A stretch of DNA of 49,190 bases, from positions 1 to 49,190 of the forward strand of contig JAUCBJ010001146.1 of NCBI GenBank assembly GCA_032718475.1, given 5' to 3'. The translations under genes were made by a program, and so were the position numbers. Within the stretch, counting starts at the first letter, position 1; each line of letters starts with the position of its first letter. This stretch comes from Nemertoderma westbladi. Lineage: Eukaryota > Animalia > Xenacoelomorpha. The notes beneath the pieces were generated by a model. The model saw nothing but the letters and a program-made list of their open reading frames with translations. It was not told where the DNA came from and searched no databases. Below are positions 3,914 to 35,385 of this stretch, piece by piece.

Positions 3914-6277
3914 TGTTCGCGCTTTTAAGACCTTTAACAGTTTAACCTGCCAAATTTGGATGTCTTTTAGATTATAAATCGACTTTAGCCTATGACAAGT
4001 ATTTGATACAAATAAACACTACATTAGCCGAAGCCAGCCTAGTGCGCGACCATTCACCCGCTGGATATACCCGGGAGACTGGATTCGGAAGCTTAATCTT
4101 ATTGCTGTGTAAACCTACTGTATTATTCGACTGATCGTAATATATAATCTCTGACAAATTGTAAAAGCTTTTGCGTAATTAGCCGGTTATTTTCCCCGTA
4201 AAGTACTCTGTGGTTGGTTTACCAGGCATAAAAAGGCCGTGTCCTTGCTGTACTGGTGTTTTAGAGGACATAAAAGCCATTTCTTCTGTATTTGTACTTT
4301 AGAGGACATAATCCGCAATTTCGTGACGCAATAAGCTAGATTCTCTTGAAAACAGTGTCGCTACCATGACGACGGCTAACAGCTGATATTGCCACGTCGA
4401 CATTTCTTTGTTTCTTTGTTCTCTCGTTGTTCGGTCGACCAATCAGAGCGTTTTTTGTCTCTGTGTTGGAGGTGGATACAGAAACTCAGGAATTCAGTGT
4501 TATGTTTTTGCCCAGAGCCTAAGAACACCGGCTTTTGGCACCTCCGTGTTTCAGTCTTTAGTCTTACATTAGTAGGCTTAATTATAGAACGTATATCTGT
4601 TATCAATGCAATTCATATCTCAACTAACTAAACATATCATACATATCTTACTTAACATTACTGCTTTTGCTGTCGGTTATTCATTATATTCGTTGATGAA
4701 ATATTATATCGGAATACTGATCAATAGTCAGACACCCAACCTTCTTGATATACTAAAGGTTGGAGAGACCGGTTACAGATAAACGATTGCGACCTATGTT
4801 AAGTGGTTTGAAGTGAATCTAATGCTATTTCATAGGCCCGACATAAATTGTATGTTGCTCTCTTTATACGTGACTAAATTTAGTGAAGGTCGGCAGATTA
4901 GTGTGCAGTATTGTGCAGCATTGTGTATGATTGTAACTGATAACAAAGCATCTCCTAAAGAATGCGCCATATACGTGAATCTATAGCCTTTTCGTTGTGT
5001 CTAGTTTAAGTCATAACTCTGTTTACATATTTAGAGCGCCACGTCCTAAAGGAACTGTTAATATTTCCCGAAAGTGAATAATATTTGTCAGAGATTATAT
5101 ATTACGATCAGTCGAATAATACAGTAGGCTTGCACCATCAATCATTAAGCTTCCGAATTCAGTCTCCCGGGTATATCCAGCGGGTGAATGATTGCGCATA
5201 GACTGGCTTCGGCTAATGTAGTGTATCAAATACTCGTCATAGGCTAAAGACTATATATCATCTAAAAGACATGCTAATTTGGCAGGTTAAACTGTCAAAG
5301 GTCTTAAAAGCGCAAATACAAATATTATTCACTTTCGGGAAATATTAACAGTTCCTTTAGGACGTGGCGCTCTATCTATATAAACAGAGCTATGACTTAA
5401 ACTAGACACAACGGTATGGCTATAGATTCACGTATATGGCACATTCTTTAGGAGATGCTTTGTTATCAGTCTCAATCATACACACTACTGCACAATACTG
5501 CACACCGATCTGCCGACCTTCATTAATTTTAGTCACATATAAAGAGAACAACGATGGATACATGTAGTGCCTATGAAATAGCATTAGATTAACTTCAAAA
5601 CCACTTTAATGTAAGTCGCAATCGTTATATGTAACCGGTCTCTCTTACCTTCAGTATATCAAAAGATTGAGGGTTTCGTAATTATTTATCGTTATTCCAA
5701 ATATAATAATATTCCATCAACTGATATAATGAATAACCGACAGTAAATAGCAGTACAATGTTACGGTATGAATGTTTATGTGAGTTTGATTGGTTTGGAA
5801 AGTAAGTAAGATGGTATGTACTGATAACAGATATACGTTCTATAATTAAGCCTACTAATGTTGGGCTAAAGCCTGAAAACACAGAGATTCCAAAGCCGGT
5901 CTTCTGGCTGTGGAAAAAGGTAAACATAAACCGTAATGCATTGTGCGATTTCTCGGAGGTTTCTGTACAAAAAGCCAGAGAATCGCTCTGATTGGTTGAG
6001 TGATTGCACAGAGTGGGCCTGAACAAAGAAACTTCCACGAGTACACCAAATCAGCTGATAGATGTCGTATTCTGAACTACACTGTGTAGAGAGTATTATG
6101 GCGTATTGCGACATAGGATTGCTAGTTGTGTCCGCCAAAGTACACATACAGAAAAATAGCTTTTTATGTCCACTAAAATACCGGTACAGTAAGGAAACGA
6201 CTTTTATGTCCTTCAAAACATCTAAAGAGTACTTCGCGGGGAAAAAATGACTAGCTAATCCCGTAAAAGCCTTTACA
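3914..6277 (-). repeat. 3' LTR of the outer BEL/Pao element, split by a nested solo LTR
   Basis: 3914-4159 plus 5324-6277 reconstitute a near-identical copy of 34192-35385. Confidence 0.9.
4160..5318 (+). mobile_element. Solo LTR of a diverged sister family, inserted in opposite orientation inside the outer 3' LTR
   Basis: Reverse-complement homolog of the outer LTR along its whole length (tgtaaaagctttt ... aaaagcgcaaata). 5-bp TSD CAAAT (4155-4159 / 5319-5323). Absent from the 34192-35385 copy. Confidence 0.85.
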
Positions 6278-7119: not shown

Positions 7120-7655
7120 TGTGACGGGATCCAGGAAGGATCCCGATTTATCCGGTTGTTTAATTCACTCGTCCCCGCCGTGCGTGTGAAAGGTGAAGGA
7201 GTTCGTGTCGTTCGTCGTATATAATGTAATCGGGTATATGGATATAAGATATATAAATGGTGTTGTCGTATACGGAAGGCGGGATACGGTAATTAAAGTC
7301 CCGGTCCTTCCCTAGCTAAACTAACTAACCTAACTAGCACCAATATAGTACTGAGATAACTGAACTGATATGATTACAGGTTACTGGTTATATTGCACGG
7401 TGGCCTTATTGCTACTCAATCGATGCCTTTCCCCCCTCTGATTGGTTGATACCCTTGTTGGCGCCTTTGGAGTGATCCCCTTCACTCCACCTGTTCTCTC
7501 TGGGTTAGGGGTTTGGCCCCTGACCCTCATTGTGTGGTTCACCTTCCCATTTTGTTGGGGTGACACGAGTTGGTTATTACCCCAATCTCGTGGCCCCCAA
7601 TATTGCTTATCGGCTTAACTTTTATGGGATGTTAGCGGGATTGAATAAGCTAACA
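7120..7655 (-). repeat. 3' LTR of the inner element
   Basis: Direct repeat of 20724-21259. Confidence 0.96.
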
Positions 7656-7664
7656 CTCCCCCCC
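7656..7664 (-). promoter_or_regulatory. Polypurine tract of the inner element
   Basis: Minus strand GGGGGGGAG abuts the TGTTAGC start of the LTR. Confidence 0.9.
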
Positions 7665-8610
7665 ATGCGATCTTCCCGGTAAGAAGATAGCATCAACCAA
7701 AAAAGTGCGCTACAATCCCGCTGGATCCCGATCTAGTATCGGGTGTGGGGTGGAAATCTTTTCTCACGGAGTCGGCTTTCCAGGCCGCTCCCTCTGGGTA
7801 TGATAACGCTACCCTGTATGCCTGGCGTCCCATGTCGGGCCGATCGCGCTCACCTCTCACACGATTTTTGTTTCCCCAACGCTTTCGCCCTTGACTCTAC
7901 TCCACCCTCACTCTAACTCTCACATACCCTCGGACCTCCTCGTCCCTCACTCAGCCTCTCATTCTCCCCCCCCACACTAGAATTGCGTCCGCACTCTCTG
8001 CGCACTTCGCACCATTACTCCGTCCCTCAACCCCACTTCGACTTCCTCACCCCTTCTGACGAATCTCCCCCCCCCCCCTTTTGTGCCGTCGCACTCAAGA
8101 AGTGTGAAATCGTCTGGTGTCTCGTCCATAGTGCTATAGTCAGTTATCCCCCCAGTCCCAGTAGCTAATTGAGAAAGGTTGTATGACTATAGTACTTACT
8201 TCGAACGTGTAATTTTATTGCTAAACTACTGATTACTACGTACGTACATATAATTGCACTTATTTTAATTATTTGCATCAGCTTAGTTCGTACTTAATAG
8301 TTCGTACGTCCCACGCGGCGCCTTCCAGGCGTACCACGTCCAAGTCTCAGTTTCTCTCCCCCGGCCCTGGGAACCTATCTGTTCCTCTTGGGATAGTTCC
8401 CCCTGGCGTCCTCTTCCCTGAGTCGTTTCTTGGTTACCACCGCTCCTCTGGGATCCGCTGTCTGCTTTCGGACTTTCGCCGCCACCTCCCTGCTGATTCC
8501 GGTTGTTGGTTCCTTGGGCGCTGGTGTTATTAGTGCCCGATATCGCTTTGCCGGTGGCCCCTCCGAGTGGCCTTGTTGTCTACCCCTGGTGGCGTCCCAT
8601 AGGATCATCT

Positions 8611-10227
8611 TCATTGCTCGCGGCACGTGCAATCCCTAAACTCCCCTCGATTCTGTGGCGTCCACCTGTCCAAATATCTTTGTGTATTCATCACTCCGGC
8701 ATACGATACCGCCGTTGCTACCTCTTGATAGGTAAACGGTAGCCTCCGCTTTATGATTTCCATGTGGGCCTCCTGATTGATAAGGAAGAAACCCCACTTG
8801 AACTCCTGGGCCTTCATGCGTTGCCGGGTCATCGCCCCGACGTCGGCCCATTCTTCGAAGATCCTGAACTTCTCTTCGTCGTCCATCCAATCGCACTGGC
8901 GTCCGTAATGTCCCCGAAAGTTACACTTCGAACATCGGTTGTGCAACCGTGGACACGCCCCCATCCTGTGGCTCGACTCTCGGCAGTAGAGACAAAAGGT
9001 TCCCTTTTGGAACCGGTACAAGCAGCTCCTTTCCTGGTGGGTCTGTCTCCCACAGCAGTCGCAACCGAGTACCAAAGTCTCCCGCCCCACGTCGTCTTTC
9101 GTCCCAAGCGATCTCCGCGGTCTGTGGAGCCGCTGATAGGCGAACTTCTGGACGTTAGCGTCCCTGTTTACGTCGATCTCCTTGCCCCTCCCGGGCATCG
9201 TCTCTCCGAATACTACCCGTGGTGCCGTCCCCGGTTGCTCACCCAACCTGATAGTGCTCCCCGCGAAATCCATCGCCGGCTCCTCGTGCACCCAGGTCCG
9301 CTTGCCGGGTTTATCCCAGAAGGCTCTCGCCCCACTGGCCGTCACCACCCTCCCGCCAACCCAGTCCGTGTCCGAGTGGCCTATCCTCTCGATGGGCGGC
9401 ATCTCCCCGAACTCGTCGTCGTCCTCGTCCTCCTCTCGCAGTGGTTCCAACCCCGGTATCCTGGTGGACCCACTATGTCCCTTCCCGCCTTGGCTCTCGC
9501 CCGTAGCTCTCCATCCTTCTAGCTCCCTTAACTTCCTTGGCGGTTGGTCGCCTTCGGCGCCCCCTGGTATGGGCATTGTTTGCAACCCCGACGTCGACTG
9601 TTTCGGCGATCCCACCGTCCATCCTAGTTCTCGCCCTAGAGATTCCCCCGAACTCCCTGACGAAGTCCAATGAAGTTCGTCCAAGGCCGCTTGTTCCTCG
9701 AAGCCGTAACTCTGTGTCCTGGCCTCCTCTTCCCTCTCCTCTGCTTCTATCCTCTCCCGTCTAGCGACTTCTTCCAGTCGCTTTGTTTCTCGTCTATCCG
9801 TCTCTAACTGCTCCCATCTCTGATACGGCGTATCTATCTCCCCGTCTACCAGATGTCGGCTGTTGTAGTACACCGACTCGCCCTTCAGCCCCGGGTGGTC
9901 TACCAGACCTTCGAAAGCCGTCTTAAAGGCTTTCTGTAGTTTAGGGGTGATCCCGATAATAGGAATGCCGCTGGTTCCCTCTCGATAACCACGGTCATGA
10001 ATAAGTTGAGCAAACTTATCATCATCCAGTCCTCCTGAAGGATATATCGCTTCTGATATACCTCTATGGCTCCTCTTCGGAACTGATACACCTCTTGTTT
10101 TCCCGGTCTCGCTCCCCACTTTAGCGAGTTCGCTAGTTCTGCTCCGTATTCTTCCCTGAACTTCCCCCAGTCCATCGGTTTGTGGCACACGAGCCCCAAT
10201 AGTTGGCCCATCGCCACCGCCCCGCAT
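8611..10227 (-). CDS. Accessory protein C-terminal part: acidic/low-complexity linker + three CCHC zinc knuckles (probably frameshifted from the exonuclease ORF near 9940-9960; may continue in ORF 8632-8375)
   Basis: CDCCGRQTHQERSC, CLYCRESSHRMGAC, CSKCNFRGHYGRQC. Confidence 0.75.
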   Translation of the reverse strand: MRGGGDGPTIGARVPQTDGLGEVQGRIRSRTSELAKVGSETGKTRGVSVPKRSHRGISEAIYPSGGLDDDKFAQLIHDRGYREGTSGIPIIGITPKLQKAFKTAFEGLVDHPGLKGESVYYNSRHLVDGEIDTPYQRWEQLETDRRETKRLEEVARRERIEAEEREEEARTQSYGFEEQAALDELHWTSSGSSGESLGRELGWTVGSPKQSTSGLQTMPIPGGAEGDQPPRKLRELEGWRATGESQGGKGHSGSTRIPGLEPLREEDEDDDEFGEMPPIERIGHSDTDWVGGRVVTASGARAFWDKPGKRTWVHEEPAMDFAGSTIRLGEQPGTAPRVVFGETMPGRGKEIDVNRDANVQKFAYQRLHRPRRSLGTKDDVGRETLVLGCDCCGRQTHQERSCLYRFQKGTFCLYCRESSHRMGACPRLHNRCSKCNFRGHYGRQCDWMDDEEKFRIFEEWADVGAMTRQRMKAQEFKWGFFLINQEAHMEIIKRRLPFTYQEVATAVSYAGVMNTQRYLDRWTPQNRGEFRDCTCREQ

Positions 10228-10919
10228 TGGCCTGTGTTTTCGACTACCTCCAACCCATCCGGTGCCGTCATAGCCATAAAGACCTTCTGCATATTCAGGA
10301 GGTTGGTGGCGTCCGGACCGATGATTCTCTCCGCATCCTCGCGAATCGCCGATCCTACCTTCGTCGTCGACTTCTCTCTTACCAAGACTTGTACCGCTTT
10401 CAGCACTCGGTTTAATTTCGGCCCGTCCTTCTTCCCATACGTCCCTAGATCGAATAAGAAGATGTCCCCATTTGGCGCGGCCAAATGTAGGAGTATGGTC
10501 CTGGCCGACCCCGCCGATCCTTGTCTCGAACCCGCCTCGTCTTCCACGGTTCCCTCGTCATCTAGGATCATATATCCTCCCCTGTTGACGGACTCTATGA
10601 ATTTCTTCCAGTCCTTCCTCGGTGATTCCCTCGGGTACTTCGGAATCCCGAACTTCGCCTCGTCCCCTTTCACTACGTAGTGGAAGTGTTGGAAGATCGC
10701 ATTGTCCAGCGACGGCGTCCCGTAGGTCCCGACCAGTCGCTGTTCGTGCATCTCCCGGAAGTGATCCTGCAGCGCTCGTGCCACATGACCCCTTTCCAAC
10801 CTCTCGTAGTATCCTCTGGTCTTCTCTTCCGGATGTCTCTCGGTGAAATCCACCAGTATCTCCTTTCCTCCTGACTCCGCTTTTCTCTTTCTGATCAACT
10901 TGCTCGCCATCCCGAACAC
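9900..10919 (-). CDS. Accessory DEDD-family (RNase D/WRN/EXD-like) 3'-5' exonuclease domain
   Basis: ExoI YMILDDEG, ILLHLA..IFLFDL, ExoII KVGSAIREDAERI, ExoIII-like QKRYILQED. Homologous to the outer element's 22802-21950 region. Confidence 0.72.
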   Translation of the reverse strand: MFGMASKLIRKRKAESGGKEILVDFTERHPEEKTRGYYERLERGHVARALQDHFREMHEQRLVGTYGTPSLDNAIFQHFHYVVKGDEAKFGIPKYPRESPRKDWKKFIESVNRGGYMILDDEGTVEDEAGSRQGSAGSARTILLHLAAPNGDIFLFDLGTYGKKDGPKLNRVLKAVQVLVREKSTTKVGSAIREDAERIIGPDATNLLNMQKVFMAMTAPDGLEVVENTGQCGAVAMGQLLGLVCHKPMDWGKFREEYGAELANSLKWGARPGKQEVYQFRRGAIEVYQKRYILQEDWMMISLLNLFMTVVIEREPAAFLLSGSPLNYRKPLRRLSKVW

Positions 10920-11399
10920 TCACTCGCTCACCTGTAAGGTGGTGCCTTACCAAGGCGCAATACAGATGAGTGATGTACCTAAGATGTTCTGTACGGTCCG
11001 ATAATGGCCTATTTCTTACTTAACTGCGCCCTTTTAGTCTGAATTCTTGCTATTTAATTCCCTAGCTAATAAATGAGCCTAATTTACAGTTTCTGTCCGT
11101 TACTTTAATTATGTTCTAGAATAACTTCCCTAGTGTTGCCATAATTTGTAACTTTCAGCCCTATTCTATTTTATTTTTATCTATCTATTTTTGATTTTAC
11201 TGTCCTACTACCTATTATTCCCTATGGATAATTCTATTCTCTAATCCACATTCTGGCCTACTCTGTGGGCCTATGCAGTACAGCAATATGCGTCATGTGG
11301 CCACACGATTTACCCAGCTGTACTCATATGCCCCCCTCTCACTACCAACCGCTAACTGATATCTATATCCCATATACCCTTCTACCTCTTACTCTCTTT

Positions 11400-11990
11400 C
11401 TAACTAACGGTACTACGTACCCTCTAACTCTAACTCTTTTCTAACTAGCGGTACTACATACCCTCTAACTCTAACTCTAACTCTTTTCTAACTAGCGGTA
11501 CTACGTACCCTCTAACTCTAACTCTTCTCTACATAGCGGTACTACGTACCCTCTAACTCTCTAACTGACTAGCGGTACTACGTACCTCCTAACTAACTCT
11601 AGGTACTACGTACCTTCTAACTCTCTACCTAACGGTACAACGTACCCTCTAACTCTTCTCTAACGGTACTACGTACCCTCTAACTAACTAACTAATGGTA
11701 CTACGTACCTCCTAACTCTCTACCTAACGGTACTACGTACCCTCTAACTCTTCTCTAACGGTACTACGTACCCTCTAACTAACTAACTAATGGTACTATG
11801 TACCTCCTAACTCTCTACCTAACGGTACTACGTACCCTCTAACTCTTCTCTAACGGTACTATGTACCCTCTAACTAACTAACTAATGGTACTACGTACCT
11901 CCTAACTCTCTACCTAACGGTACTACGTACCTTCTAACTAACTAACTAACTCTAGGTACTACGTACTACTTCTAACTCTTTTAACTTCTG
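11400..11990. repeat. Array of ~17 GGTAC-TAC-GTACC mini-hairpin units with CT-rich spacers, between pol and the accessory gene
   Basis: Motif at ~11409, 11449, 11497, 11538, 11574, 11602, 11634 ... 11955. A 95-bp three-unit higher-order repeat occupies the distal part. Confidence 0.9.
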
Positions 11991-12120
11991 CCTACTAACT
12001 GTGTACCTACTATGTACTATTATTTTATTTTTATTTGTTTTGTGTGGGAAGGGCGTCTCGCCCTCAATCCCACCCCCCTCAGTCCAAAACTTGGACGACT
12101 AAAACACTTCACAAACTCCA

Positions 12121-13842
12121 CTAAGGTGCCCCTTCTAGGAGACAGCATTTCCCTACAGCTCTCCTGTAGGTCTTTCTGTCCTTCGCACCTATCTTACCAC
12201 CTATCCGCACTTCTACCGATCGGACTCTTCCGTCCTCGTCGGAGTAAGTGCCTACGACTCTTGCCAACCGCCATTGGTTGTTGATGATAGTATCATCCGT
12301 AACGATTACGAGATCTCCCTCTTTCAACTCCCTATTCGGCTTCCTCCATTTGCTTCTTTTATGGAACGTGGGCAGATATTCTTCGACCCACCTCCTCCAA
12401 TACTCGGCACTTATTGCTTTAGCAACTTTCCAACTCTGGCGGGAGTGTATGTCGTCTGGATCTACACCCCGCATATCGATGGTTGCTGGCCTTTCCATTA
12501 GAAAATGGCTAGGGGTCAGCACGTCTAGTGATTCAGGGTCATCATTCTCCGGATATAGCGGTCTACTATTAATGATGCCCTCACACTTTGCAAGCACTGT
12601 CCTCAAGATGTCCTCCGTGACCATGTGGGTGTTCATTAACTTCGTCATTAGACGCTTCAAACTGCCCACCAGTCTCTCGACGCATCCTAGTGTATGTGGT
12701 GCATACGGCGTCCTTCTCTCCCACTTTACTTGTCGTCGTCTCATGGCCGCCCTGACTTCCTCCCCTTCCAAGATGTCCAAGGCCTCTGCCATCTCATTCT
12801 CTGCGCCCACAAAGTTGGTGCCGTTGTCGCTGTATATCACTGCGATCGTCCCAACTTTGCGGTCTCTAAACCTTTCTAAGGCATTAATGAATGCTGATGC
12901 GGTTGCATCTTGGGCGAGTTCTATCCCTACCGCCCGCGTGTTGTTACATACGAAGATGATACCGTAGCGTTTCTCCGTGTGCCGCATCACCTTGATTTTT
13001 ATCGGCCCGAACATGTCCACACCGCAATGCGTAAATGGCGGGTCGTGCTGTCTTACTCTACTTGCTGGTAGTGGCGCCATCTCTTGTATGGCTCGCTCCT
13101 TCTTCGCTCGTCAGCAGGTCTGGCACTGCCCCACTACCGCTTTTACCTTCTTCCTCAGTTGTTTGACCCAGTAGGTCCTCCTTATCTCCGCGAGAGTTCG
13201 GTTGGTGCCCCCATGCAATATCGACTTGTGGGAGTCCCAGATAATCTGGTGAACTATTGGCGATCCTATTGGAATGATGATGGGTTTCAGTGGTACGATT
13301 ATGCTGTTGTTGTATCCCACCCTAGAATTCATTACTAGAATCCCGTCGTCATTAAGTTGTGGCGACAGCGTAATCAGCTCGCTGTCTTGTCGGAGGTGCT
13401 GTTGGTTACCGACGCATTCCACCTCGTCACCATAGTTCTTCCGTTGTTCATAGCGGATGACTGCCTTGGCCGCTCCTTCCAGATCTATATATGTCTTGAT
13501 CTTTTTGGTTTTGCCGACTCCCGCGAGGAAATTCCCGAAGGCTCTCCAGTACGCCACTAGTTTCTTGGTCTTATACCAACTAGAACTGTAGCTGAGGAGT
13601 TTATCTGTCGGGTTATCGCATTGTTCTTGCTTTGGTTGCACGTCCCTAATCTCCCTCACCATCTGGGAGTATATCTCTTCTCCCTCTGAATCTCCTTCAT
13701 CTCCCTCTGACACCACTTCCGAGCCCGGGTCCACCTTTCTCATCGGCGGCCAGGCCTCCTTATCGCTCAGAAATTGTGGCCCATGTTGCCACAATACTTC
13801 CTTTTTCAAGAAAGTGTGGCATGCCACGCCCCTCGATAACAA
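12121..13842 (-). pseudogene. Pol: RH-IN linker, HHCC zinc finger and DDE integrase (one in-frame TGA at 13111-13113)
   Basis: SH..LHGG...CQTC, then HCGVDMFGP, IYSDNGTNFVGA, GCVERLV, INSRPL, LTPSHFL, WRRWVEEYL, DGRVRSVEVR. ORFs 13842-13111 and 13080-12121 are in the same frame. Confidence 0.93.
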
Positions 13843-15827
13843 GTCCGCTGGGTTCTCGTCTGTTGGGCAGTAGTGCCACCTTTCCAGTTCTTTCCAGTCG
13901 CCCTTATTTCGTCCACTCTATTCGCGACGAATATCGGGTATCTCGTCCTTTCGTTATGTAACCAACCAAGCACTACCATGGAGTCCGTCCAGTAGTGTGT
14001 CTCCACTATGTTGGGAATAGTATCCACTAGGTAGGCTGTGGCTCTGACTCCTAGTCTCGCAGCTGTCAACTCTAACTTGGGAACTGATGCTGAATCTGGC
14101 GGCGTCGACTTCGCTTTGCTAAAGGCTAGTCTGGGCTTTCGAGCCCCCTCTCGTTGTACTAAATAGAGTGCCGCTCCGTACGCCTCCAACGACGCATCGG
14201 AGAACATGTGTAGGTCCAGATTCGTCATGTTCCCATCCGGGAAATACACTCGTGGCATGTTGTATGTTCCCATCTTCTCCAAGTCTCCTGTCCACCTACT
14301 CCACTGTTTCTTAATTTCCTCTGGTACCTCTACGTCCCACTCATCCTTCAATTTGTATACTCTCTTGAGTATCTGTTTCCCCGTGACTAGTAATGGGGAT
14401 GCTAGGCCTAGGGGATCGCATATCCTTGCTATATACGATACATAGCCCCTCTTCGTGTGGATGTCTGCGCCCTCCTGGCTCAGCTGATATTTCAGTTCGT
14501 CTGTCTCCCTGTCCCACACGATTCCCAATGCCTTCTGTTTAGATTCTGTTCTCTTATTCGCCATTTCCTGCCCTTTGGCTGTTGTGGGATTATCCATGGT
14601 CGATTCTGGCCTCTTGTCCTCTATCGCCTTGATAAATTCTTCCGAACTGGATTGGAATTTGGTCAGGTTAAAGCCGGATCCTTTTAGGATGTCGCGAACT
14701 TCGCGCCCCGTATCCAGTATCTCCTTAACCGTATTTCCAGACTCCATTCCGTCGTCTACGTAGAAGCCGCGTCGAATCATATCGACGGCCCTAGTGCTGT
14801 ATCTATCTTCTTTTCCCTTAACTGTGTCTCTCACTGCCATAGTCGTCGTAAATGAAGACGACTTGGCCCCCATGTTTTGTACTACCATCTTATATGCCGG
14901 TATTATCAACGGTTCTTCCTCGCCGTTATACCATAAGAAGCGTTGACTGTCGCTATCTTCCTCCGTTACACGGACTTGGTTGAACATGCCTTCTATGTCA
15001 CACGTGAAGGCGTGTTTCCCGTTTCTAAATCTAAGTAGCACCTCTATGCCTGAGTTGTATATGTTTGGGCCTTCTAACAGATAGTCATTTAAGCATTTTC
15101 CGTTGGTCTTTGCCGATGCGTCAACTACCATCCGCAGTTTACCTTTCTTTGGGTCTAAAGCCACGTGGAGTGGCAGGTAATATGTCCTGTCCGTGTTCGG
15201 TTCGTCGACCGGTAACTCCACGGCCCATCCTTTCTCGACGTACTTCTTAATCGTTCTGTGGATGTACTCATTCTTCTCGGGGCTCCGTTTTAGTGTTTGT
15301 TTCAGCTTGCGGAGTCTCGTGAGTACCATCCCTCTATTATCGGGCAGCGGTATCCATACCATTCCTATAGTATACCGCCCCTCATCGCATGTCATCGATT
15401 CCTCCACGCTTTGTAAAGCCTGCTTGTCTTCTACCAAGGTCCCGACCCCGGTTTCCTTCAGTCCCTCGAAGTCTTGTCTGAGCAGTCTTTTAAGCTGCTC
15501 CTCTGCTCCCTCATCACCCATTTCCTGCATTGTTCCCGCGAACATGCATCCTGATGTCTCCGACATCCTAAATGGTATCTTGCTCTTGATTGGGCCACTC
15601 AGCGTCCACCCGAATGGCGTCAATATCGCCACCGGGTCGCACTGCTTGTCTTCGCCGAAGACCGTTTGCATTCTTTCGTGGGCCGTTGGGCAGTCCATTC
15701 CCACTATGATGGATACCTTCCTAACGTCCACGTCTGGGATTGAGAAGTCAATGTCGTCCAGGAATTTATATTGCTCGACCTCGATGTTAGTTGGCTGCCT
15801 GGCATTGATATTGATTGACTCTATCAC
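13806..15827 (-). CDS. Pol: Pao-type reverse transcriptase + RNase H (frameshifted at both ends)
   Basis: YYLPLH, KLRMVVDAS, LNDYLLEGP, CDIEGMFNQV, QRFLW, FYVDD, DPLG, LHMFSDASLEAYGA, VPKLELTAA, YWTDS, FVANRV. Confidence 0.95.
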   Translation of the reverse strand: MIESININARQPTNIEVEQYKFLDDIDFSIPDVDVRKVSIIVGMDCPTAHERMQTVFGEDKQCDPVAILTPFGWTLSGPIKSKIPFRMSETSGCMFAGTMQEMGDEGAEEQLKRLLRQDFEGLKETGVGTLVEDKQALQSVEESMTCDEGRYTIGMVWIPLPDNRGMVLTRLRKLKQTLKRSPEKNEYIHRTIKKYVEKGWAVELPVDEPNTDRTYYLPLHVALDPKKGKLRMVVDASAKTNGKCLNDYLLEGPNIYNSGIEVLLRFRNGKHAFTCDIEGMFNQVRVTEEDSDSQRFLWYNGEEEPLIIPAYKMVVQNMGAKSSSFTTTMAVRDTVKGKEDRYSTRAVDMIRRGFYVDDGMESGNTVKEILDTGREVRDILKGSGFNLTKFQSSSEEFIKAIEDKRPESTMDNPTTAKGQEMANKRTESKQKALGIVWDRETDELKYQLSQEGADIHTKRGYVSYIARICDPLGLASPLLVTGKQILKRVYKLKDEWDVEVPEEIKKQWSRWTGDLEKMGTYNMPRVYFPDGNMTNLDLHMFSDASLEAYGAALYLVQREGARKPRLAFSKAKSTPPDSASVPKLELTAARLGVRATAYLVDTIPNIVETHYWTDSMVVLGWLHNERTRYPIFVANRVDEIRATGKNWKGGTTAQQTRTQRTCYRGAWHATLS

Positions 15828-17320
15828 TTGGACGGGGTCGATGGTTGCCCGTAGTCACATCCCGGTGCCACTGCTGCAATTGCGCACCATCCTGTTCTCA
15901 TCTCCAGGATCTCATCCTTGCTAGAGATGGTTGTTACCACCATTCTGCTTGGCCTCGTTCTCAATCCTATCTCTTCGGCCACCCATTCCTCGACTAATGT
16001 GAAGGCAGCTCCACTATCAACCAGCATTAGTGTTGTCACTGACCGATTGCCTTCCCCAATCACTCGCACGGGTACTACTCCAAGTAACACCGTTCCTCTC
16101 TTCTTCGCCCCTACTGTGCTCGTTGCCATCGTTTGGCCTCTCCTTTCAACAAACTTGACCGGCTTCTCCTTGCATTCCCTTGCCCTATGTCCACTCATCA
16201 CACATCGCGAGCAGATTTTATTGCTCAACGCATAATCTATCTGATCTTGCCTAGGTAGCGCCTGCCAGTACCTGCAGTTCATGGTTTGATGAAGCGCATT
16301 TGAGTGTAGCTGGCATTTGCTCTTTGGGTCGTAGCCCTCCTTATACAGCGCATTGCGTATCGCAGCTGCGTTTGTACCAAAGTCCCTACTATTCTTATTG
16401 TTTGAATTCGGCCTACCGGAAGTACTGGGGTTGTATTTATTCGTGTTGTTATTGTTCCCCTGTCCGTTCCATGGTGTTATCTTATCTCCGGCTAGCTGTG
16501 GACTTGCAGTCCCCTGCGTCGCTGCATATGGCAATGATTGCCTGAGCCTCGGTAATGCGTTTGATGTATTGTGCTCTGGCTTCGGTCTATGGTAATCCGT
16601 CTTCGGTCCCTTTCCCAGGCTATCTTCGCTATAGACTGGGTCAGTTATTAGTTCAGCCTCGTAGTTCAAGAAGTTTGACATTTCTTCTAAACCCGGTTCC
16701 GCACCCTTCTTGTCTCGAGTGGAGAAAGCGATTTTTCTCCACTTGTTGCGCAGCCAGTTCGGTAGTGCCTGCGCTATCGTGGTGATGTTGTTGGACGCGT
16801 TGAGCTTGTATGGCGCGTCTAGCATCTTCAGCACGATTAGCGCCTTTTCGACTTTGTTAGCGAATGTCTTGATGCTAACGGGATTATCCTGTAGGCCACC
16901 CGATGTTATGCCTCTCAGTGTCTGCCTGATGATCTTGGCCGGGTGCCCGTATTCCCTATCCAGTGCCCGCCATGCCGTCGTGAAGCCGCCCTCTATTCCT
17001 TGATATTGCCTCACGATATCGTATGCTGGGCCTCCCGTGTATACTTGCAGATATTTTAGGCACTCCGCCTGCGTCAAGTTCTTTGTCAGTATTTCGTTAC
17101 TATACATGCGCCGAAACTGTAGATATTCTTCCGGCCTACTCCCATCGAATTTGAATGGTTCCACGGGTGGTAACTCGATCCTCGTTTTCAACGCATCGAT
17201 CAACGTGGCCATCCCCATCGCTTGCGCTTCCAATGGGTTCGATGGGTGTTGTATAGTTTCTCCCGTCTGGTGCGGTCCGTCTGTCCTATTTCTCGACTTT
17301 CTTTGACTTGGATATGTCAT
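15824..17320 (-). CDS. Gag core (DUF1759-like) + Cys/His knuckles + aspartic protease
   Basis: KFDGSRPEEYLQF..LKYL..YG, CSRCVMSGHRAREC, LVDSGAAFTLV. Confidence 0.9.
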   Translation of the reverse strand: MTYPSQRKSRNRTDGPHQTGETIQHPSNPLEAQAMGMATLIDALKTRIELPPVEPFKFDGSRPEEYLQFRRMYSNEILTKNLTQAECLKYLQVYTGGPAYDIVRQYQGIEGGFTTAWRALDREYGHPAKIIRQTLRGITSGGLQDNPVSIKTFANKVEKALIVLKMLDAPYKLNASNNITTIAQALPNWLRNKWRKIAFSTRDKKGAEPGLEEMSNFLNYEAELITDPVYSEDSLGKGPKTDYHRPKPEHNTSNALPRLRQSLPYAATQGTASPQLAGDKITPWNGQGNNNNTNKYNPSTSGRPNSNNKNSRDFGTNAAAIRNALYKEGYDPKSKCQLHSNALHQTMNCRYWQALPRQDQIDYALSNKICSRCVMSGHRARECKEKPVKFVERRGQTMATSTVGAKKRGTVLLGVVPVRVIGEGNRSVTTLMLVDSGAAFTLVEEWVAEEIGLRTRPSRMVVTTISSKDEILEMRTGWCAIAAVAPGCDYGQPSTPSK

Positions 17321-17432
17321 TGGGGGTAGCGGCCCCCTCCATATTTCTGTGTCACACTACCTATTTTCATCTAAGGGTCTCGTTGTTCTTGCTCCTATCG
17401 GGGTATATTGTTGATATTGTGATGGGGGAATG

Positions 17433-20400
17433 TCACCCTGTCCCCCCCCCCACCGGTATGTTTGGTACTGGGGTTGATGTTAATATGTTGGGGCCCATGC
17501 ACCTATCCGCAATAATTACCCACTCCCCTGGGTATATGTTACATCCTTGCATGCTGTAGTCATACTGCTGTACTGGTACCGGTATAGGCCTATCAGCTTC
17601 TGGCCTACTCGCCGGTATGTATTCCGCGACTTCCGGGTTTAATCCCGTCGTCCGCGCTATCCTATCGCCTACATTGCCTCTCTCAGTATGGCCTATGGTA
17701 TGTGCAGTAAGGCCTACAGTATGTCCTACAGTCTGCATGTGTCGCTCGGGATCGAATATTATTCTTCTCGAGTAGTCCTCCCCGTGGCTACCGTATTCTC
17801 GATCGGTAGGTGTATTCCGTCGGAAAGTTTCTCTTCGACCCCCCCTTCTACTGTCCTCGTCTTCGTACCGGTACATCGTGTACCCCTCCATCGGCGCGCA
17901 ATGCGCCCCACCAGGTCGCATCTCTCCGGGGCAACGGCAATCTCCCGGAGTTCGACCCCACTGACTCTCTGTTCTCATCTCGACTACCGACGGCTCGCTA
18001 TCCGTCCTCGCTCTTCTATCGTTCGCGGCGATACTTCTACTACTGTCTTCTCTTCTTCTCCTTTCAGTGGAGTATTCCCGCTCGTGAGATCTCTCGTCGA
18101 CCTCCCGGTTAAACCCCACTGTTCTTCTTCCCTCTTCTGATCGGGCTCGACGCTTCGTCCGCCCTCTTACGACGTCAACCTGTCTCTCTCTGCTCGGTCG
18201 CACGCCGCTGGGGATACTCGCAATCCCCCTATTACTTTCCGTCGCCGGGTGTTGCGGTTTACCTAATTCGGTCCGCGCATTATCCGCTAACGGCTGTGGG
18301 ACACTCTCTGCCCCCCCTTTTTCGCCGCTAACTCGCTGTTGTGGGGCCAATGTAGCCCCCCCCACTCGCCACATCTAACTTCGCTATCCCTCACCCCACT
18401 ACTATATCCCTCTCTAGTCGACACATCAACCCTACCGCGGTCGGGTCTATTCACCCCCGCCTCTCCCTCTGCTATTGCGTGGCCTACCAGGCCCTCTACT
18501 CCCTGCCTACCAACTACATGGCCTACCAGGCCCTCTACTCCCTGCCTACCAACTACGTGGCCTACCAGGCCCTCTACTCCCTGCCTACCAACTACGTGGC
18601 CTACCAGGCCCTCTACTCCCTGCCTACCAACTACGTGGCCTACCAGGCCCTCTACTCCCTGCCTACCAACTACGTGGCCTACCAGGCCCTCGCTGGGTCT
18701 ACCCAACCCAGCCACTCCCTGCCTACTAACTACACGGCCTACCAGGCCCCCGTCTGCCTGGCCATACACACCCGACGTGTTTACGTTAATAGCACCCATA
18801 TTGGAAACGGAATTAATTTGTTCGTTTGAGGCAAAATCATTTGAATTATTTTGCACGACTACACTATCTGAATTATTTTGTAAATTCGGGCTTGGATCAT
18901 TATTTAAATTATTTGGATTATTTTGCGTAACTACGTTATTTGAATTATTTTGTAAATTCTGGTTTGGATCGTTATTTAAATTATTTGGATTATATTGCGT
19001 AACTACGTTATTTGAATTATTATTATTTTCTAAATTTAAATTATTATCGTTCAAATTGAAATTATTATTTGTATTTAGATTTAAGTTACTACTACTAGGT
19101 AAAGTATTATTTGCTGCAATAAAGGTTTGGTTAGAGTTATCCCATATGGTACTATTAATATTAACAACGTCTACTGTAGCATTATCATTATTACCCCCCC
19201 CCCCCCCCCCCCCCCCCGCCCGTACGGTCACACCAGTTTTGGGTCTGTCGTGCGGTCCCTGTAAGTGGGGTATTAATAAATGTATCCACGGCCCCTGGCT
19301 CCCCTAAAATACTCGAGCCAGCCCCGCTCTCAGGCGCCCCCACCCGCACCTGTTGCAGCTCGTGCGTGTGTCTAATCCTATGCTCCGCAAACTCACTTTG
19401 GCATCTCCCTAATTCCTTTTGCTCTCGCTCAGCTTCTGCCACTCTCCTCTCGCACTCCCGCGCGTCCCGTTCAGCCAACTCCGCTACTCTCCTAGCGCTC
19501 TCCCTTCGCCTCGCTTCACGCTTTCCCATCTCGCCTCGCGCTCCTTACGTTCCGCTTCACGCTCTTTGCGTTCCTTTTCCTCTCTCGCCTCACGTTCCTT
19601 ACGTTCCTTTTCCTCTTTCTCCTCACGTTCCCTACACTCCCTTTCCTCTATTTCCTCAAACTCCCTAAGGCTTCTCAAAGCCCTTTCGGCCCTCTCTCCG
19701 GTTTCTCTAATCAATGCCGTTTCCCTCTCTAGCCGCATTCTCCCCTCCTCTAGCTGTTTATCCATTTCCCTCTGACCTTGCTCTATCAGGTCGAGACGGT
19801 ACGCGGCATCTATCTCTCTCACCCTTCTTTCTTTCGCGGAGGATGTAGCAGACTTATCGGTTATGACGGATCCCCTCCGCCTTCCCGACCTACTGACTCT
19901 CCCCCGCTTCCCAGAACTTCCTCCAACCGACGAGGCCGAATCCTCGGGGTTAACCTCGGATTTGCCCTCCTCAGGTCTCTCCCAACCCACTAATTTTAGT
20001 CCCCAGGCATCGACTAAGTATGGCCCTACGTACACTACGCTAGGTTCCATACCCCTACACCGCCACATGTCATACAGTTGCTCGGCAACCCCTCTCGCTC
20101 TCTCCTTTGCCAGTTCTCTTTGCCCGAAGCGCATTAGATAATTTAAGTGTTTATTCGACTCACCTAGTCGTTTTCTCAGTCTCACCTTGTCTATCTTCGC
20201 CCCCTCTTTGGCCTCCTTTAGCAGTTTCTGGGTCGCGTTGTAGGCCCGTCGAAGTCGCTCAGAAACACCGACGTCCTCGTCGCCGACCTCTCTTCCGTCT
20301 CTCCGGGTCCGACGTCGTACCGTCGGCCCCACCGTCGCCGTTTCGGTGGGCCGTCCATCGCTCTCGGCCTGTGGCAGGCCGGCAACATCGGTACGCTGGT

Positions 20401-20683
20401 CGTCGTTGCGCGTCGACTCGTTGCCGTCTCCCTCCGTCTCGCTCCCTCCTTCTCTCGACTCGATCTCGGGTTCCAGGCGGCCCCCCTCATCTTGAGCTGC
20501 CGGATGACCCGTTACCGATGGGTCCGGCGTTGTGGGCCTGTACCGCCTGGTCGCGGCCTCGCGGATCGTTAACTCTTCGTCCGGGGTCCGCGTTGGCGTC
20601 GTCTCTCCCGACTGGCTCATCTCGGTTAGTTCGATTGGTGGCTGGTAGTCACTGAGTTTTAGTTTTACTGTGGAAGGGTTCAA
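17433..20683 (-). pseudogene. Very long low-complexity/coiled-coil N-terminal gag extension, split across four ORFs
   Basis: Overlapping minus ORFs 20683-19484, 19529-19191, 19231-18287, 18374-17433. Contains PEDSASSV (typical BEL gag N-terminal motif), an E/R/K coiled coil, a poly-G run, an Asn-rich block and 13-aa repeats. Confidence 0.65.
18478..18750 (-). repeat. 39-bp coding tandem repeat (GLVGHVVGRQGVE)n
   Basis: About five near-perfect plus further degenerate copies of cgtggcctaccaggccctctactccctgcctaccaacta. Confidence 0.9.
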
Positions 20684-20693
20684 TTACTGAGTC

Positions 20694-20723
20694 TAGCTAG
20701 GGCGGCAGCTCGGATTTAATTAC
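20694..20723 (-). promoter_or_regulatory. Non-tRNA primer-binding position of the inner element, complementary to its own LTR
   Basis: Minus strand GTAATTAAA directly follows the 5' LTR, with no TGG. It is complementary to LTR 20901-20893. A second block CCCTAGCTA (20702-20694) is complementary to LTR 20922-20914. Confidence 0.7.
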
Positions 20724-21259
20724 TGTGACGGGATCCAGGAAGGATCCCGATTTATCCGGTTGTTTAATTCACGCGTCCCCGCCGTGCGTATGAAAGGTGA
20801 AGGAGTTCGTGTCATTCGTCGTATATAATGTAATCGGGTATATAGATATAAGATATATAAATGGTGTTGTCGTATACGGAAGGCGGGATACGGTAATTAA
20901 AGTCCCGGTCCTTCCCTAGCTAAACTAACTAACCTAACTAGCACCAATATAGTACTGAGATAACTGAACTGATATGATTACAGGTTACTGGTTATATTGC
21001 ATGGTGGCCTTATTGCTACTCAATCGATGCCTTTCCCCCCTCTGATTGGTTGATACCCTTGTTGGCGCCTTTGGAGTGATCCCCTTCACTCCACCTGTTC
21101 TCTCTGGGTTAGGTGTTTGGCCCCTGACCCTCATTGTGTGGTTCACCTTCCCATTTTGTTGGGGTGACACGAGTTGGTTATTACCCCAATCTCGTGGCCC
21201 CCAATATTGCTTATCGGCTTATCTTTTATGGGATGTTAGCGGGATTGAATAAGCTAACA
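20724..21259 (-). repeat. 5' LTR of the inner element
   Basis: Direct repeat of 7120-7655, followed by TSD TTGAC. Confidence 0.96.
20962..21049 (-). promoter_or_regulatory. Putative Pol II promoter in the inner LTR
   Basis: Minus strand CCAAT (21049-21045), TATAA (20996-20992) and tandem TCAGTT initiator-like motifs (20972-20962). TATA lies ~31 nt upstream of the second. Confidence 0.55.
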
Positions 21260-24200
21260 TTGACAGTGGTGGCATTGAGTCATAAATTGGGGGCAGACTG
21301 CAAAAATGTGCGAGTTATTAAGTCTGCAATACGCACAATAGATCTCCATCATCGGTTGTTCGGGGAAATAGGAGCAGGGTACGTCTGAGTCCATAGGGGT
21401 GAAATGGTCTCTAGATGCGCATAATCGACAACGTTTTCGAGAAACATAGTTAGCGTGTCGATAATCGTATGCGGTGAGACATTGTGGACCTTGATACCAC
21501 TCTAAGACGTAGTCGTTATCGCTGCTCCGGGGTGCAGTAGGCTGAATCGCCTCAGATTCTAAGCATATTGGTTCGTCTTCCAATTGCATAGCTGAGATAG
21601 GTGCGGCTGTCTCCACAAGCGGACCCACTGTCTGAACTTCTACGACAGAATAACCCGTGGGTATTCGGGGTCTTTGTATAACAGATGAATGTAAGTTCTG
21701 TATACAAACGTCCTGGAAAAGGGCAAATCCCGTGCTGTTTAGCTTCTCCGCCACTGAGTCTCTTAGGCTGAGTTTGGTCAGAGCGCGGTCCTTGAACTGA
21801 CTATCAACGTTACGGAACGGAGTCAGAAAGCGCCTGAAACATTCGAAGCGGATGAATTTATTGTGTTCATCTAACTTGGCGAGTTTGGTTCCAAGTATTA
21901 AGGGATGGGCGCGGATGGTACGACTGCACACATCGGCTAGCCAACCGGCAAGTGCGGCGTTTTCAAAGATCGTGTATATAGCTAAGGAGGGACGAAGTGG
22001 AACACTCATAAAGCTATACACGGCGCCAGGTGCGGTCAATGGTCCATCAAAGTATAAACGAGAATAATGATCTCCATATACTTGCTGGTAATTAATAGGA
22101 TTTCCAACTTTGAAATTCCATCCGTATTCTTGAAAGGCAAGATGTCCGATGGAGGTTCATTGTACTTTAGTGATGCCGCTGGGTGTATTGGCATACATAG
22201 TGCGGAAGAAACCTCGGCCTTCTGCCCAGGGAGCAATCAGCTGAGTATCAACGAAAGGGTATGGAATGTTTTCCATGTTCCGAAAGTCGTTTTGGAGGTC
22301 TCCATAAACAGCTGAGCCGATTTTAAGGATTCTTTCGTTAAACAGCATCTCGAGCACGGGCTGGGGTAACATCGATCCATCGATACCCATGGCTGGTTTG
22401 CGCTCGGTGTCGGTGACGTAACGCTGCGCGAGTTCGAATTGTCCATGTCGGAGTTTCTTTTGTGTCTCCGTAAGAGTCGCAAAAAGAATAATCAATCACA
22501 TCGGAACATGCTCGAGTAAATACGTGGGTAGAACCAGCAAGTCCTCGTATGTGTATCATTCGCGTAGTTCCCAGTTCTCCAACAGGAACACTACCTTCGT
22601 TATCGTAAGTGACAACTCCATACATCTCGATAACGTTAAGAGTCTCATTCCATTCTTTAGTGGCGTTTTCGAGAGTCATTCCCACTGGATGCCACAAGGT
22701 AGCGCATTCGCTAGCATTAGGTAGATCTCTATACTTTAAGTATTGGGTAGTATATGTTTCCACATCTCCATATCGTTGTATTCTTTCCTCCTCGAATAAC
22801 ACGTCAAGATTCCAGTGTACTAATCGAGTTTTGATGAATCAATCAAGATTATACGGAGGTATTATTTCTTTCTCTATTCTGGAAACATTATATGGTTTTC
22901 GAAATGAGTTTACTTTAACTAACTGATCCAGATGTTTCTGCAGTTGTTCGAGTTCGACAAGATCGAGAGGATTTATTAGTGGTAGAAACCTCAGACTATG
23001 GGTAGGATCTTCCGGTTTTACCATGTAATATTGTGTTAAATTGACATAATAAGGGTGATCTTTGATCCCATAAAACGAGTCCGGTAAAGGTCTAGCGCGT
23101 ATGTTAACATCGTGTACCATGCGACGGACAAGATCCGCTCTATTGTCCGGAGGTTCAACGAGTATACCATCGACACGAGTGGCTTCGATGGGCGGACGTT
23201 GCAACATGGGAGCATCAGCGATAAGATCTCGAGATCTTAGGTTGATATCAACCGGTTGAGGCTGTGCCATGGCGAAGAGTTTGTCTCCGAAATGAGGAAC
23301 CATAGAAGGATGGATAATGGTTTTAGAATAGAGATCTGTTATAAGAATTTGGGCTTCTGGCTGGGCCAAAGATGCTGCTTCTCTCTCATCCAATTCTATA
23401 TGTCTCTCCTCGAGTTGATTTTCTTCCGCTTGTTGTTGTAAACGCTCATCCAGGAACTCTTGCAAAGAGTAGGTTCGTCCACGTTCTATGTCCTCCTCGA
23501 GATTTTGTATTTCTCTATCAAACTGGGGTAAAGCTAGTTCTTTCACCGCTTGGACTTGTTGCTGCAATTTACGTTTCTCCAAACAATCGTAAGTTCCCTT
23601 ACGACGCTCCCGTACTTACTTCCGTACGACGCTCTCTTCGACTTCCGTAACGGGTTGTATCGGGGCGAAGCCGGGACGGTTGTACGGGTTAAACGGCGAT
23701 ATTAGATGACCGCATCCTAATCCGGCTAGGTAGGGTTGGCAAATATCTAGTGAGCCTACTACCGGAGTGCCACCGATCAACTGTTCGGTTAACACTAGAT
23801 CTTTGAACAGTGAGTACAGTTCGGGAGGATCCGTGATACTATTAGGATCAAGAGTCTGAGGTCTAACTGAGGAATGAGGGGGTCTGACCGAGAATTCAGG
23901 GACTCTGATCATTGGTTTATTCAAGGATCGTTTGAGCCGAGCGACCGTAGGTGATACGTCGAACAGGTTTCGCTCGAAACTCCCATAAGTATATCGTGTA
24001 AAACTGTGTTTAGCGCAACGTCTCCGCGGATGTTTATGCCTTTCCGTTTGCTGATTGGGTCTAGGGCATTCGTCGCAGTAATACCAAAGACGCACGTCCT
24101 GCAAGGGAAACAAGGGTGATCGTTCTCCAGTTTTACAATATTCCTCCATCTGTTCGAAGCTATCTGGGACGACAGGTAGCGGTCGATCGGTGGTAAGATA

Positions 24201-24605
24201 CATCATAGTGAAATAGAGTTGTTTGAGTTCTATCATAGGATCATGATGTATACCTTGAGGATATCGAGTTTCTAAATTTTGTTGACTGGCAACATTGAGA
24301 TATGTTTCTCTTAGAAACTCCAGATATTTGTTGAAGTCGCTGCGTTTATCCGGCTCTTCAACATCTTCTCTTTCGAGTCGGTTTCTAATAGAATTCTTGT
24401 GTTCTATTCTCGGTTTATCGTTACAACTCCGCTGGGTATGATATTTGAATAAAACCATTTCCCTTTCTGTATTGATATCGTCCGTATCGTGTAGGTCGAT
24501 AGGATGACCAGTAGCTAAGAAGTCCATATACGTACCATTACGATGCATATAGCGAGCGGTGAACTTTCTATAATCCAATTCACGCGTAAGTTGCTCCGGG
24601 GACAT
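21260..24605 (-). pseudogene. Outer element accessory gene: unknown N-terminal domains + DEDD 3'-5' exonuclease + CCHC knuckles (degraded, continues at 7119)
   Basis: Consecutive minus ORFs 24605-23616, 23582-22839, 22802-22338, 22495-22157 (+TGA) and 22039-21254. Motifs VVTYDNEG, LEMLFNERILKIGSAVYGD, FVDTQLI, AIYTIFEN, CRLCASRDH, CAYCRLNNSHIFAVC, CHHC. Confidence 0.75.
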
Positions 24606-25830: not shown

Positions 25831-26061
25831 AAGGGGTTAACATATTTATTTTGCGTTATATGCTACTGTTAAAGGGACATCACGCTACTATATGTATTAT
25901 TTAATATACGGTATGAGAGCAATATCGCACGAAGCAATATCAGTGTGAAGAGGCAAGTCATTTCCAAGGTCTACCCAGAGCTTGGTTTAGCCGAGACACG
26001 AGGATCTGAACTTTGCATTCCTAATACTCTGCCTACCAATAATACTTGAATATAGTAGGAG

Positions 26062-26164: not shown

Positions 26165-26196
<32 letters not shown>

Positions 26197-34175: not shown

Positions 34176-34179
34176 GAAT

Positions 34180-34191
34180 TATATCTGTTAT
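34180..34191 (-). promoter_or_regulatory. Non-tRNA primer-binding position of the outer element, complementary to its own LTR
   Basis: Minus strand ATAACAGATATA directly follows the 5' LTR, with no TGG. It is the exact 12-nt complement of LTR 34943-34932 (TATATCTGTTAT). Confidence 0.72.
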
Positions 34192-35385
34192 TGTTCGCGC
34201 TTTTAAGACCTTTAGCAGTTTAACCTGCCAAATTTGGATGTCTTTTAGATTATAAATCGACTTTAGCCTATGACAAGTATTTGATACAAATAAACACTAC
34301 ATTAGCCGAAGCCAGCCTAGCCTATTCACCCGCTGGATATACCCGGGAGACTGGATTCGGAAGCTTAATCTTATTGCTGTGTAAACCTACTGTATTATTC
34401 GACTGATCGTAATATATAATCTCTGACAAATATTATTCACTTTCGGGAAATATTAACAGTTCCTTTAGGACATGGCGCTCTATCTATATAAACAGAGCTA
34501 TGACTTAAACTAGACACAACGGTATGGCTATAGATTCACGTATATGGCGCATTGTTTAGGAGATGCTTTGTTATCAGTCTCAATCATACACACTACTGCA
34601 CAATACTGCACACCGATCTGCCGACCTTCATTAATTTTAGTCACATATAAAGAGAACAACGACGGATACATGTAGTGCCTATGAAATAGCATTAGATTCA
34701 CTTCAAAACCACTTTAATGTAAGTCGCAATCGTTATATGTAACCGGTCTCTCTTACCTTCAGTATATCAAAAGATTGAGGGTTTCGTAATTATTTATCGT
34801 TATTCCAAATATAATAATATTCCATCAACTGATATAATGAATAACCGACAGTAAATAGCAGTACAATGTTACGGTATGAATGTTTATGTGAGTTTGATTG
34901 GTTTGGAAAGTAAGTAAGATGGTATGTACTGATAACAGATATACGTTCTATAATTAAGCCTACTAATGTTGGGCTAAAGCCTGAAAACACAGAGATTCCA
35001 AAGCCGGTCTTCTGGCTGTGTAAAAAGGTGAACATAAACCGTAATGCATTGCGCGACTTCTCGGAGGTTTCTGTACAAAAAGCCAGAGAATCGCTTTGAT
35101 TGGTTGAGTGATTGCACAGAGTGGGCCTGAACAAAGAAACTTCCACGAGTACACCAAATCAGCTGATAGATGTCGTAATCTGAACTACACTGTGTAGAGA
35201 GTATTATGGCGTATTGCGACATAGGATTGCTAGTTGTGTCCGCCAAAGTACACATACAGAAAAATAGCTTTTTATGTCCACTAAAATACCGGTACAGTAA
35301 GGAAACGACTTTTATGTCCTTCAAAACATCTAAAGAGTACTTCGCGGGGAAAAAATGACTAGCTAATCCCGCAAAAGCCTTTACA
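34192..35385 (-). repeat. 5' LTR of the outer element (1194 bp)
   Basis: Uninterrupted copy of the split LTR at 3914-6277. Imperfect terminal inverted repeat tgt-N4-gctttt. Followed by GTAGT. Confidence 0.9.

Follow-up and report, generated by a model that had tools for sequence, protein, structure and literature searches.

Retrotransposons with a primer-binding site (PBS) that complements their own long terminal repeat (LTR) are known from Tf1, Tf2, Tj1 and the sushi group, all Ty3/gypsy chromoviruses, and excerpts of PMC6317226 and PMC4600332 describe self-priming for Tf1/sushi and predict it for Tcn1 and the copia TAR lineage. As far as the available portions of the sources go, RNase H frees the Tf1 primer by a cut between bases 11 and 12 (PMC7175516), a PBS copied into DNA is present on about half of the Tf1 cDNA (PMC11042837), the Tf1 ‘pretzel’ consists of three duplexes of which both side duplexes form with LTR sequence downstream of the primer (bioRxiv 10.1101/2022.12.06.519325), and a start-site control is described for Tf2 (PMC5341516). 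For the plant elements Tcn1 (gypsy) and TAR/Houba/Osr-1 (copia), self-priming has been predicted from LTR complementarity, with a rule, in the part of PMC6317226 at hand, of at least 10 complementary bases starting 0–5 bases after the LTR. The ICTV profile of the Belpaoviridae lists a PBS of 18 nt for tRNA-Arg or tRNA-Gly, with genome sizes of 4.2–10 kb, and describes the BEL/Pao elements as primed by host tRNA, with a replication that is poorly understood (PMC8742986). Partial texts of PMC3601003 and PMC5445492 hold nothing on BEL/Pao priming, and that of PMC3118150 has no match for PBS, tRNA or self. BEL/Pao self-priming was not reported in the literature searched; Butler 2001, Repbase, GyDB, subscription journals and supplements lie outside that search and may hold a prior note.

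The window analyzed here comprises positions 1–49,190 of contig JAUCBJ010001146.1 of Nemertoderma westbladi (assembly GCA_032718475.1); it contains nested repeats and, starting at about 37560, a 49-bp satellite. The inner element of the nest (21259..7120, minus strand, as are all features of the two elements below; 14.1 kb) is flanked at 21259 and 7120 by the 5-bp target duplication GTCAA. Its 5’ LTR (20724..21259; 536 nt, TG...CA) and 3’ LTR (7120..7655) differ at seven of the 536 nt and both end in ...TCACA, the 5’ LTR at 20724, and a G-rich polypurine tract (7656..7664) lies flush with the 3’ LTR. The gag-pol region (12121..20683, several broken frames) matches DUF1759 (E-value 4e-11), an aspartyl protease, reverse transcriptase (RT; weak, 0.006), the Pao RNase H (Peptidase_A17; 1e-38), the integrase zinc finger (Integrase_H2C2) and core, and DUF5641 (1e-24), in the order PR-RT-RH-IN. 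The nearest database relatives (n = 19) are 27–37% identical, 16 of them with Peptidase_A17 or DUF1759. The element thus shares its LTRs, target-site duplication, polypurine tract, and domain set and order with the Belpaoviridae of the ICTV profile, and by its protein domains is classed as BEL/Pao; it departs from that family in the primer site, which is not of the tRNA type, and exceeds the 4.2–10 kb size range. A PBS of the tRNA type is regarded here as usual for BEL/Pao and not as diagnostic. It is not a member of the Tf1/sushi group, having a BEL/Pao polyprotein and no chromodomain match. Purine-rich tandem repeats occupy 11380–12010, between pol and an extra gene.

The initial annotation reported, from the letters of the inner element, two 9-bp helices in register between the start of the leader and the LTR, flush with the LTR edge and free of a TGG, and its coordinates and letters agree with the sequence. 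The 9-nt PBS (20715..20723) pairs at nine of nine Watson–Crick positions (20723–20715 with 20893–20901) with the predicted 3’ segment of a self-primer, whose 3’-OH would lie at 20893; this LTR strand is common to the two alternative folds considered below. Across a 12-by-12 gap, 20702–20694 pairs in register with 20914–20922, again nine of nine, and this second helix reaches further than had been noticed, to 13 pairs including one G.U (20690..20702 with 20914..20926). The first 20 post-LTR bases contain no TGG in either the inner or the outer element, and an 18-nt PBS of the tRNA type is absent from the inner element, the PBS of which is instead complementary to its own LTR, as in Tf1, Tf2, Tj1 and the sushi group. 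When the LTR was shuffled with its dinucleotides kept, 26 of 5000 versions gave an anchored match of nine or more bases. For the first 34 post-LTR bases the duplex energy is -34.6 kcal/mol (shuffles, -23.3 +/- 2.7; 0 of 300 as good), and a second run of nine or more occurs in a single register, the observed one, out of 491. Less in favor, a 9-base match is found at four of 1900 internal offsets, two of the four being the helices themselves. That the pairing is a chance match, or the by-product of an LTR-internal arm duplicated into the leader, is hardly credible and already largely refuted by the in-register second helix, the recurrence in the outer element and the conservation with pair-keeping variants; it draws on the resemblance of the PBS to the internal partner at 20772–20763, on the 9-base match having by itself a p of about 0.005, and on the first 18 post-LTR bases alone being unremarkable (65 of 300 shuffles as good).

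The outer element (35385 to 3914), into which the inner one is nested, has the target duplication ACTAC, a 5’ LTR of 1194 nt (34192..35385) and a 3’ LTR (3914..6277) divided into two parts (6277–5319 and 4159–3914) by an inverted solo LTR (4160–5318, plus strand), which is related to the outer LTR at about 78% identity. It encodes, in a frame within 27340–30822, a DUF1759 gag and a protease-like stretch that continues straight into a sequence like the pre-integrase linker of the inner element; RT, RNase H and integrase were sought in it and not found, so this copy is non-autonomous. Its PBS (34180..34191, 12 nt), likewise flush with the LTR end, pairs at 12 of 12 positions (34191–34180 with 34932–34943), a match reached in five of 5000 shuffles and at one of 1900 offsets, and the predicted self-primer segment (34932..34943) has the same letters in the diverged solo LTR. 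In both elements, then, the pairing exceeds the shuffled controls, and it recurs in the outer element with different letters. The inner 9-base match falls short of the 10-base rule given for Tcn1 and TAR in the excerpted source, whereas the outer 12-base match exceeds it, and the first five bases of the outer PBS are also those of the Tf1 PBS printed in the available part of PMC11042837. The two sites are indeed different, as first described, yet the LTRs are not devoid of shared sequence, since an 11-base CCAAT-box motif is common to them (14 bases with the outer 3’ LTR). The further claim of natural covariation between the elements is not supported: they cannot be aligned at the site, and the likeness is therefore one of recurrence. 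Beside the insertion point of the solo LTR, identity between solo and outer LTR climbs to 94–100% (34585–34386 equivalents), which may reflect gene conversion or strong constraint. The outer leader is about 2.2 kb long (32000–34180) with tandem duplications of 293 and about 106 nt and a first ATG at 31955, and other repeats occupy 24600–27300.

A primer formed across a splice junction was considered and rejected for both elements, as none of 239 inner joints reaches eight bases across the joint and the best of 2912 outer joints reaches 11, against 12 unspliced. No tRNA gene occurs in the window, and an Rfam search of 20500–21300 gave one match, far below the cut-off. Relatives with flanks were sought in viral contigs and prokaryote genomes and none were found, and three matches from a metagenome scan were dismissed as chance, being in GC-rich contigs without similarity to the window.

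Other copies of the inner family, which are many and diverged, were compared in contigs from four of the six listed DNA runs of the host, representing at most three samples; only contigs 80% alike were compared, and these are short and unphased, with depth not equivalent to copy number. Between 20670 and 20940, 31 rows at 29 places reach 8% of depth, and 27 of these places fall in 20739–20877, leaving only 20717 and 20897 in the arms. The four predicted stems vary at two of 81 positions, compared to 27 of 180 elsewhere (Fisher p 0.002, with positions that are not independent). Both arm variants replace A by G on the element strand, and an A-U pair thereby becomes G.U, such that pairing is kept on the RNA strand only: the PBS variant at 20717, at 6–21% of depth in the four runs, gives U.G, while that at 20897 amounts to 84, 71, 81 and 100% of depth. 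No place in the arms of the second helix reaches 8% of depth, and in two single contigs with diverged leaders, read by hand, this helix keeps 12 pairs via G.U. Among the copies, then, the paired arms are nearly invariant and their variants keep the pairs, a point in favor of the initial annotation. Taken together, the pairing is a real and conserved RNA feature. In other copies the leaders become dissimilar some 10 bases past the LTR end; the leader of the copy in the window (20659–20693) is about 21–33 bases longer than several others, apparently by local duplication, and a further leader–LTR complementarity seen by eye (20650–20635 with 20949–20938) would lie closer to the second helix in copies without the extra leader.

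In both elements the LTR site that matches the PBS can also pair elsewhere within the LTR, and according to folding models it is this second partner that the free RNA favors. When the inner RNA is folded from its predicted start, 20901–20882 pairs with 20763..20783 at a probability of 0.90–0.97, an 8-bp hairpin (20729..20749; two variants in the loop and none listed in the stem) adjoins the PBS at a probability of 0.99, and the second helix forms at 0.66–0.91, whereas the PBS helix, eight of whose nine pairs are A-U, reaches 0.01–0.02. Imposing the PBS helix carries a penalty of 2.9 kcal/mol, and the GC-rich half of the internal helix persists, stacked on the imposed one. The region folds better than all of 200 shuffles (z -3.15), and the copy of the site in the 3’ LTR (7297–7289), accompanied there by a copy of the internal partner, folds into the closed form. 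The outer site pairs within its LTR with 34578–34569 and 34545–34538 (0.97–0.98) in the free fold, the outer PBS helix standing at 0.00 and costing 9.3 kcal/mol to force. The PBS helix as a ground state is thus not borne out by the folding of either predicted transcript, and this, together with the shortness and A-U content of the inner one, weighs against self-priming. Nor does the variation among inner copies show covariation in the PBS helix. The single two-sided change, from A-U to G-C, joins 20897 to 20767, which is altered at similar shares of depth (75, 75, 67 and 80% in the four runs), while no variant is listed at 20719, the PBS partner of 20897, even in the run where 20897 is altered at 100% of depth; as 20897 is matched at 20767 and 20719 has no listed variant, the change supports the closed fold. 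For the outer family, identity with the solo LTR rises from 0.54–0.74 upstream to 0.92 in 34985–34936, and a two-sided change occurs at 34980/34260 in a neighboring LTR helix. Many of the outer-versus-solo changes break predicted LTR helices, which speaks against the switch-gated self-priming proposed below: of 18 helices checked, two have a two-sided change and 10 have at least one broken pair.

These observations bear on a reading in which the pairing serves as an RNA switch that controls polyadenylation, packaging or translation, while a small RNA of the host, such as a piece of tRNA, pairs with the same post-LTR bases as primer. The prevalence of the closed fold and its possession of the sole two-sided change are what such a switch would show, no listed change at 20719 in the PBS goes with that of the LTR site, and the internal partner contains an ATTAAA hexamer (20768), a predicted polyadenylation signal. 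Against this, the pairing begins in both elements at the first post-LTR base, where a primer must end, there is no TGG, and the divergence of leaders about 10 bases past the LTR would leave a site too short and A-U-rich for a primer supplied in trans. On balance this reading is unlikely. That 20719 has no listed variant while 20897 is commonly altered also counts against self-priming, as the PBS should follow 20897 if the primer is copied into the new PBS, in the manner given in excerpts for Tf1; it has not done so, and self-priming does not explain this.

Where the primer would lie in the transcript depends on the start site, which is itself a prediction. The promoter elements named in the initial annotation are present (20960..21053), with a CCAAT box at 21049, TATAA at 20996 and initiator-like TCAGTT at 20972/20967, for a start at about 20970–20965; TATAA 20996 stands 31 bases before 20965, and no variant at 20996 is found among 40 of the 167 rows. 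The CCAAT box is 156, 171 and 164 bases upstream of the predicted primer end in the inner, outer and solo LTR, respectively. From these motifs the primer probably lies inside the transcript, some 70 bases from its start, unlike the Tf1/sushi primers, which are the first 9–11 bases. A layout as in Tf1, with a start at the head of the second helix (about 20926) and the first 34 bases as primer, would take advantage of an initiator-like TTAGTT (20928–20923) at which that helix begins and of a TATA-like box at 20951. This layout is very doubtful: the TATA-like box (20951–20953) is changed in most of the compared depth, and the distance from the CCAAT box down to 20926 is 123 bases, as against about 80 to 20965. 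Conservation and the two-sided change in the outer family both set in some 50 bases upstream of the predicted primer end, and with them the conserved paired sequence; this and the variation at 20951 make an internal primer the likelier arrangement.

Self-priming is the simplest reading, as the self-pairing ends exactly where a primer must end and there is no tRNA site, and taken over its three forms it is quite probable. The form that stands somewhat better than even is self-priming from an internal LTR site that a fold switch gates and an RNase H cut of the Tf1 kind opens. Transcription would start near 20970–20965, and the free RNA would adopt the closed fold (20901–20882 with 20783–20763), hiding both the primer site and the predicted polyadenylation hexamer, this being the sole fold open to the 3’ LTR copy. 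In the 5’ copy, the second helix would tether the leader beside the primer site, and a local strand exchange of about 3 kcal/mol, probably aided by Gag zinc knuckles in the particle, would transfer 20901–20893 to the PBS without loss of the GC-rich half of the internal helix. At the junction 20893|20892 the RT's RNase H would then cut, as in Tf1, and free a primer of about 73–78 nt with its last nine bases on the PBS. RT would copy about 169 bases (20724 to 20892) and jump through the remaining repeat, the lost 5’ part being restored from the 3’ LTR copy, and the flush PBS and polypurine tract would yield a blunt cDNA ending in CA.

The initial annotation had gone further and taken an internal primer to imply a different way of making the 3’-OH. 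Self-priming stands as the best reading, but the different route does not follow from an internal primer: a cut on the 3’ side of the primer is required in Tf1 as well, and since Tf1 RNase H cuts between bases 11 and 12, according to the excerpted source, a longer 5’ tail needs no new chemistry. Under the RNase H cut reading the inner site would resemble Tf1, again as excerpted, in releasing the primer by cutting on its 3’ side and in having extra duplexes beside the PBS. It would differ from the Tf1 pretzel of the available preprint text in that the duplex after the PBS pairs upstream of the primer, with a hairpin present before the PBS, and from Tf1 generally in the competing full partner inside the LTR. 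By this analogy the two elements likely work like Tf1 without belonging to its group.

Trimming by an exonuclease is a live alternative as a source of the 3’-OH. The inner element carries, in the stretch from pol to the 3’ LTR, an extra gene in two frames (8611..10919), likely a DEDDy 3’–5’ exonuclease (10919–9903), followed by Cys-His knuckles (about 9120–8740; E 0.22). The assignment comes from Atlas (score 0.95; 178 of 256 features; 25 of 30 matches in a set with PF01612 on 34% of its members, the top three being unnamed clusters), with acidic motifs of this kind discerned by eye; Pfam, PDB and large protein searches were blank, and no close relative was found among 1.8 billion representatives. 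In the outer element a broken gene (21254..22838, continuing 7006–6359), with the inner element inserted in its knuckle region, displays Cys-His knuckles and, by eye, an acidic-motif pattern that we take to be that of such exonucleases. It is the best non-self match to the inner gene in the window (E 0.07–0.24; knuckles 0.009–0.03; pairwise comparison 0.4–0.5), Pfam gives it no support, and Atlas returned weak phage-capsid matches at low recognition. Single-sequence structure models of the extra genes (pLDDT 34 and 39) were too poor to search. The bdelloid elements Juno and Vesta carry a DEDDy ORF3, the function of which is unknown and for which 3’-end processing has been suggested in the accessible part of PMC5408684, a text that has no match there for PBS, tRNA or self-prim. 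The inner gene resembles ORF3, as excerpted, in its place between pol and the 3’ LTR and differs in being followed by zinc knuckles and in belonging to a BEL/Pao rather than a gypsy-like element.

Trimming would also be self-priming, with the element's own likely exonuclease shortening the RNA back to the PBS duplex, and the trimmed RNA would be either the 3’ end of the genome at 7289 or a short LTR transcript. For a 3’ end to act as primer, the site must be downstream of the transcription start, as some repeat has to be left over for the first jump; use of the 3’ copy would thus account for the internal position of the site, which the trimming model would require and the cut model would merely tolerate. 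The likely exonuclease gene in the inner element, the gene of weak similarity in the equivalent position of the outer one, and the proposal, in the excerpted rotifer work, that DEDDy ORFs of LTR elements process the 3’ ends of element RNA all favor trimming. According to the predicted fold, however, the closed helix and the 8-bp hairpin tie up the 3’ copy, and these stems should halt a single-strand exonuclease about 130 bases short; the exonuclease identity comes from one tool, with other searches blank and the outer piece unsupported; and both genes are broken in these copies. Trimming is judged quite unlikely. Slightly less likely again is the fuller account in which an animal BEL/Pao lineage dropped tRNA priming and has its own RNA cut back by a captured 3’–5’ exonuclease as far as a duplex at the LTR edge that the switch gates, perhaps with the 3’ end of the genomic RNA itself acting as primer on a looped genome.

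If self-priming is correct, BEL/Pao would be the third superfamily to use it, with an internal primer and a competing fold unlike the layout of Tf1. It would explain BEL/Pao elements without a recognizable PBS, which PBS-based annotation filters miss, and such elements would be freed from control by tRNA fragments; the exonuclease genes of some LTR elements would have a first testable job. The competing fold and the candidate exonuclease are likely the own marks of these BEL/Pao elements, the mechanism being otherwise a known one.

The remainder of the nest contains several other repeats. A Penelope-like element (1–3333, plus strand) has an RT frame at 387–2225 (RVT_1 E 1e-8), a second frame at 2125–2964 that is GIY-YIG nuclease-like by eye with no Pfam match, and 473-nt direct repeats at 1–472 and 2861–3333. 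It is followed by a LINE-like 3’ fragment (3334–3913, plus strand) with a (TAG)n end, into the tail of which, by eye, the outer element has inserted. The 49-bp satellite extends over 37560–48500 in more than 220 copies that are 92–100% alike.
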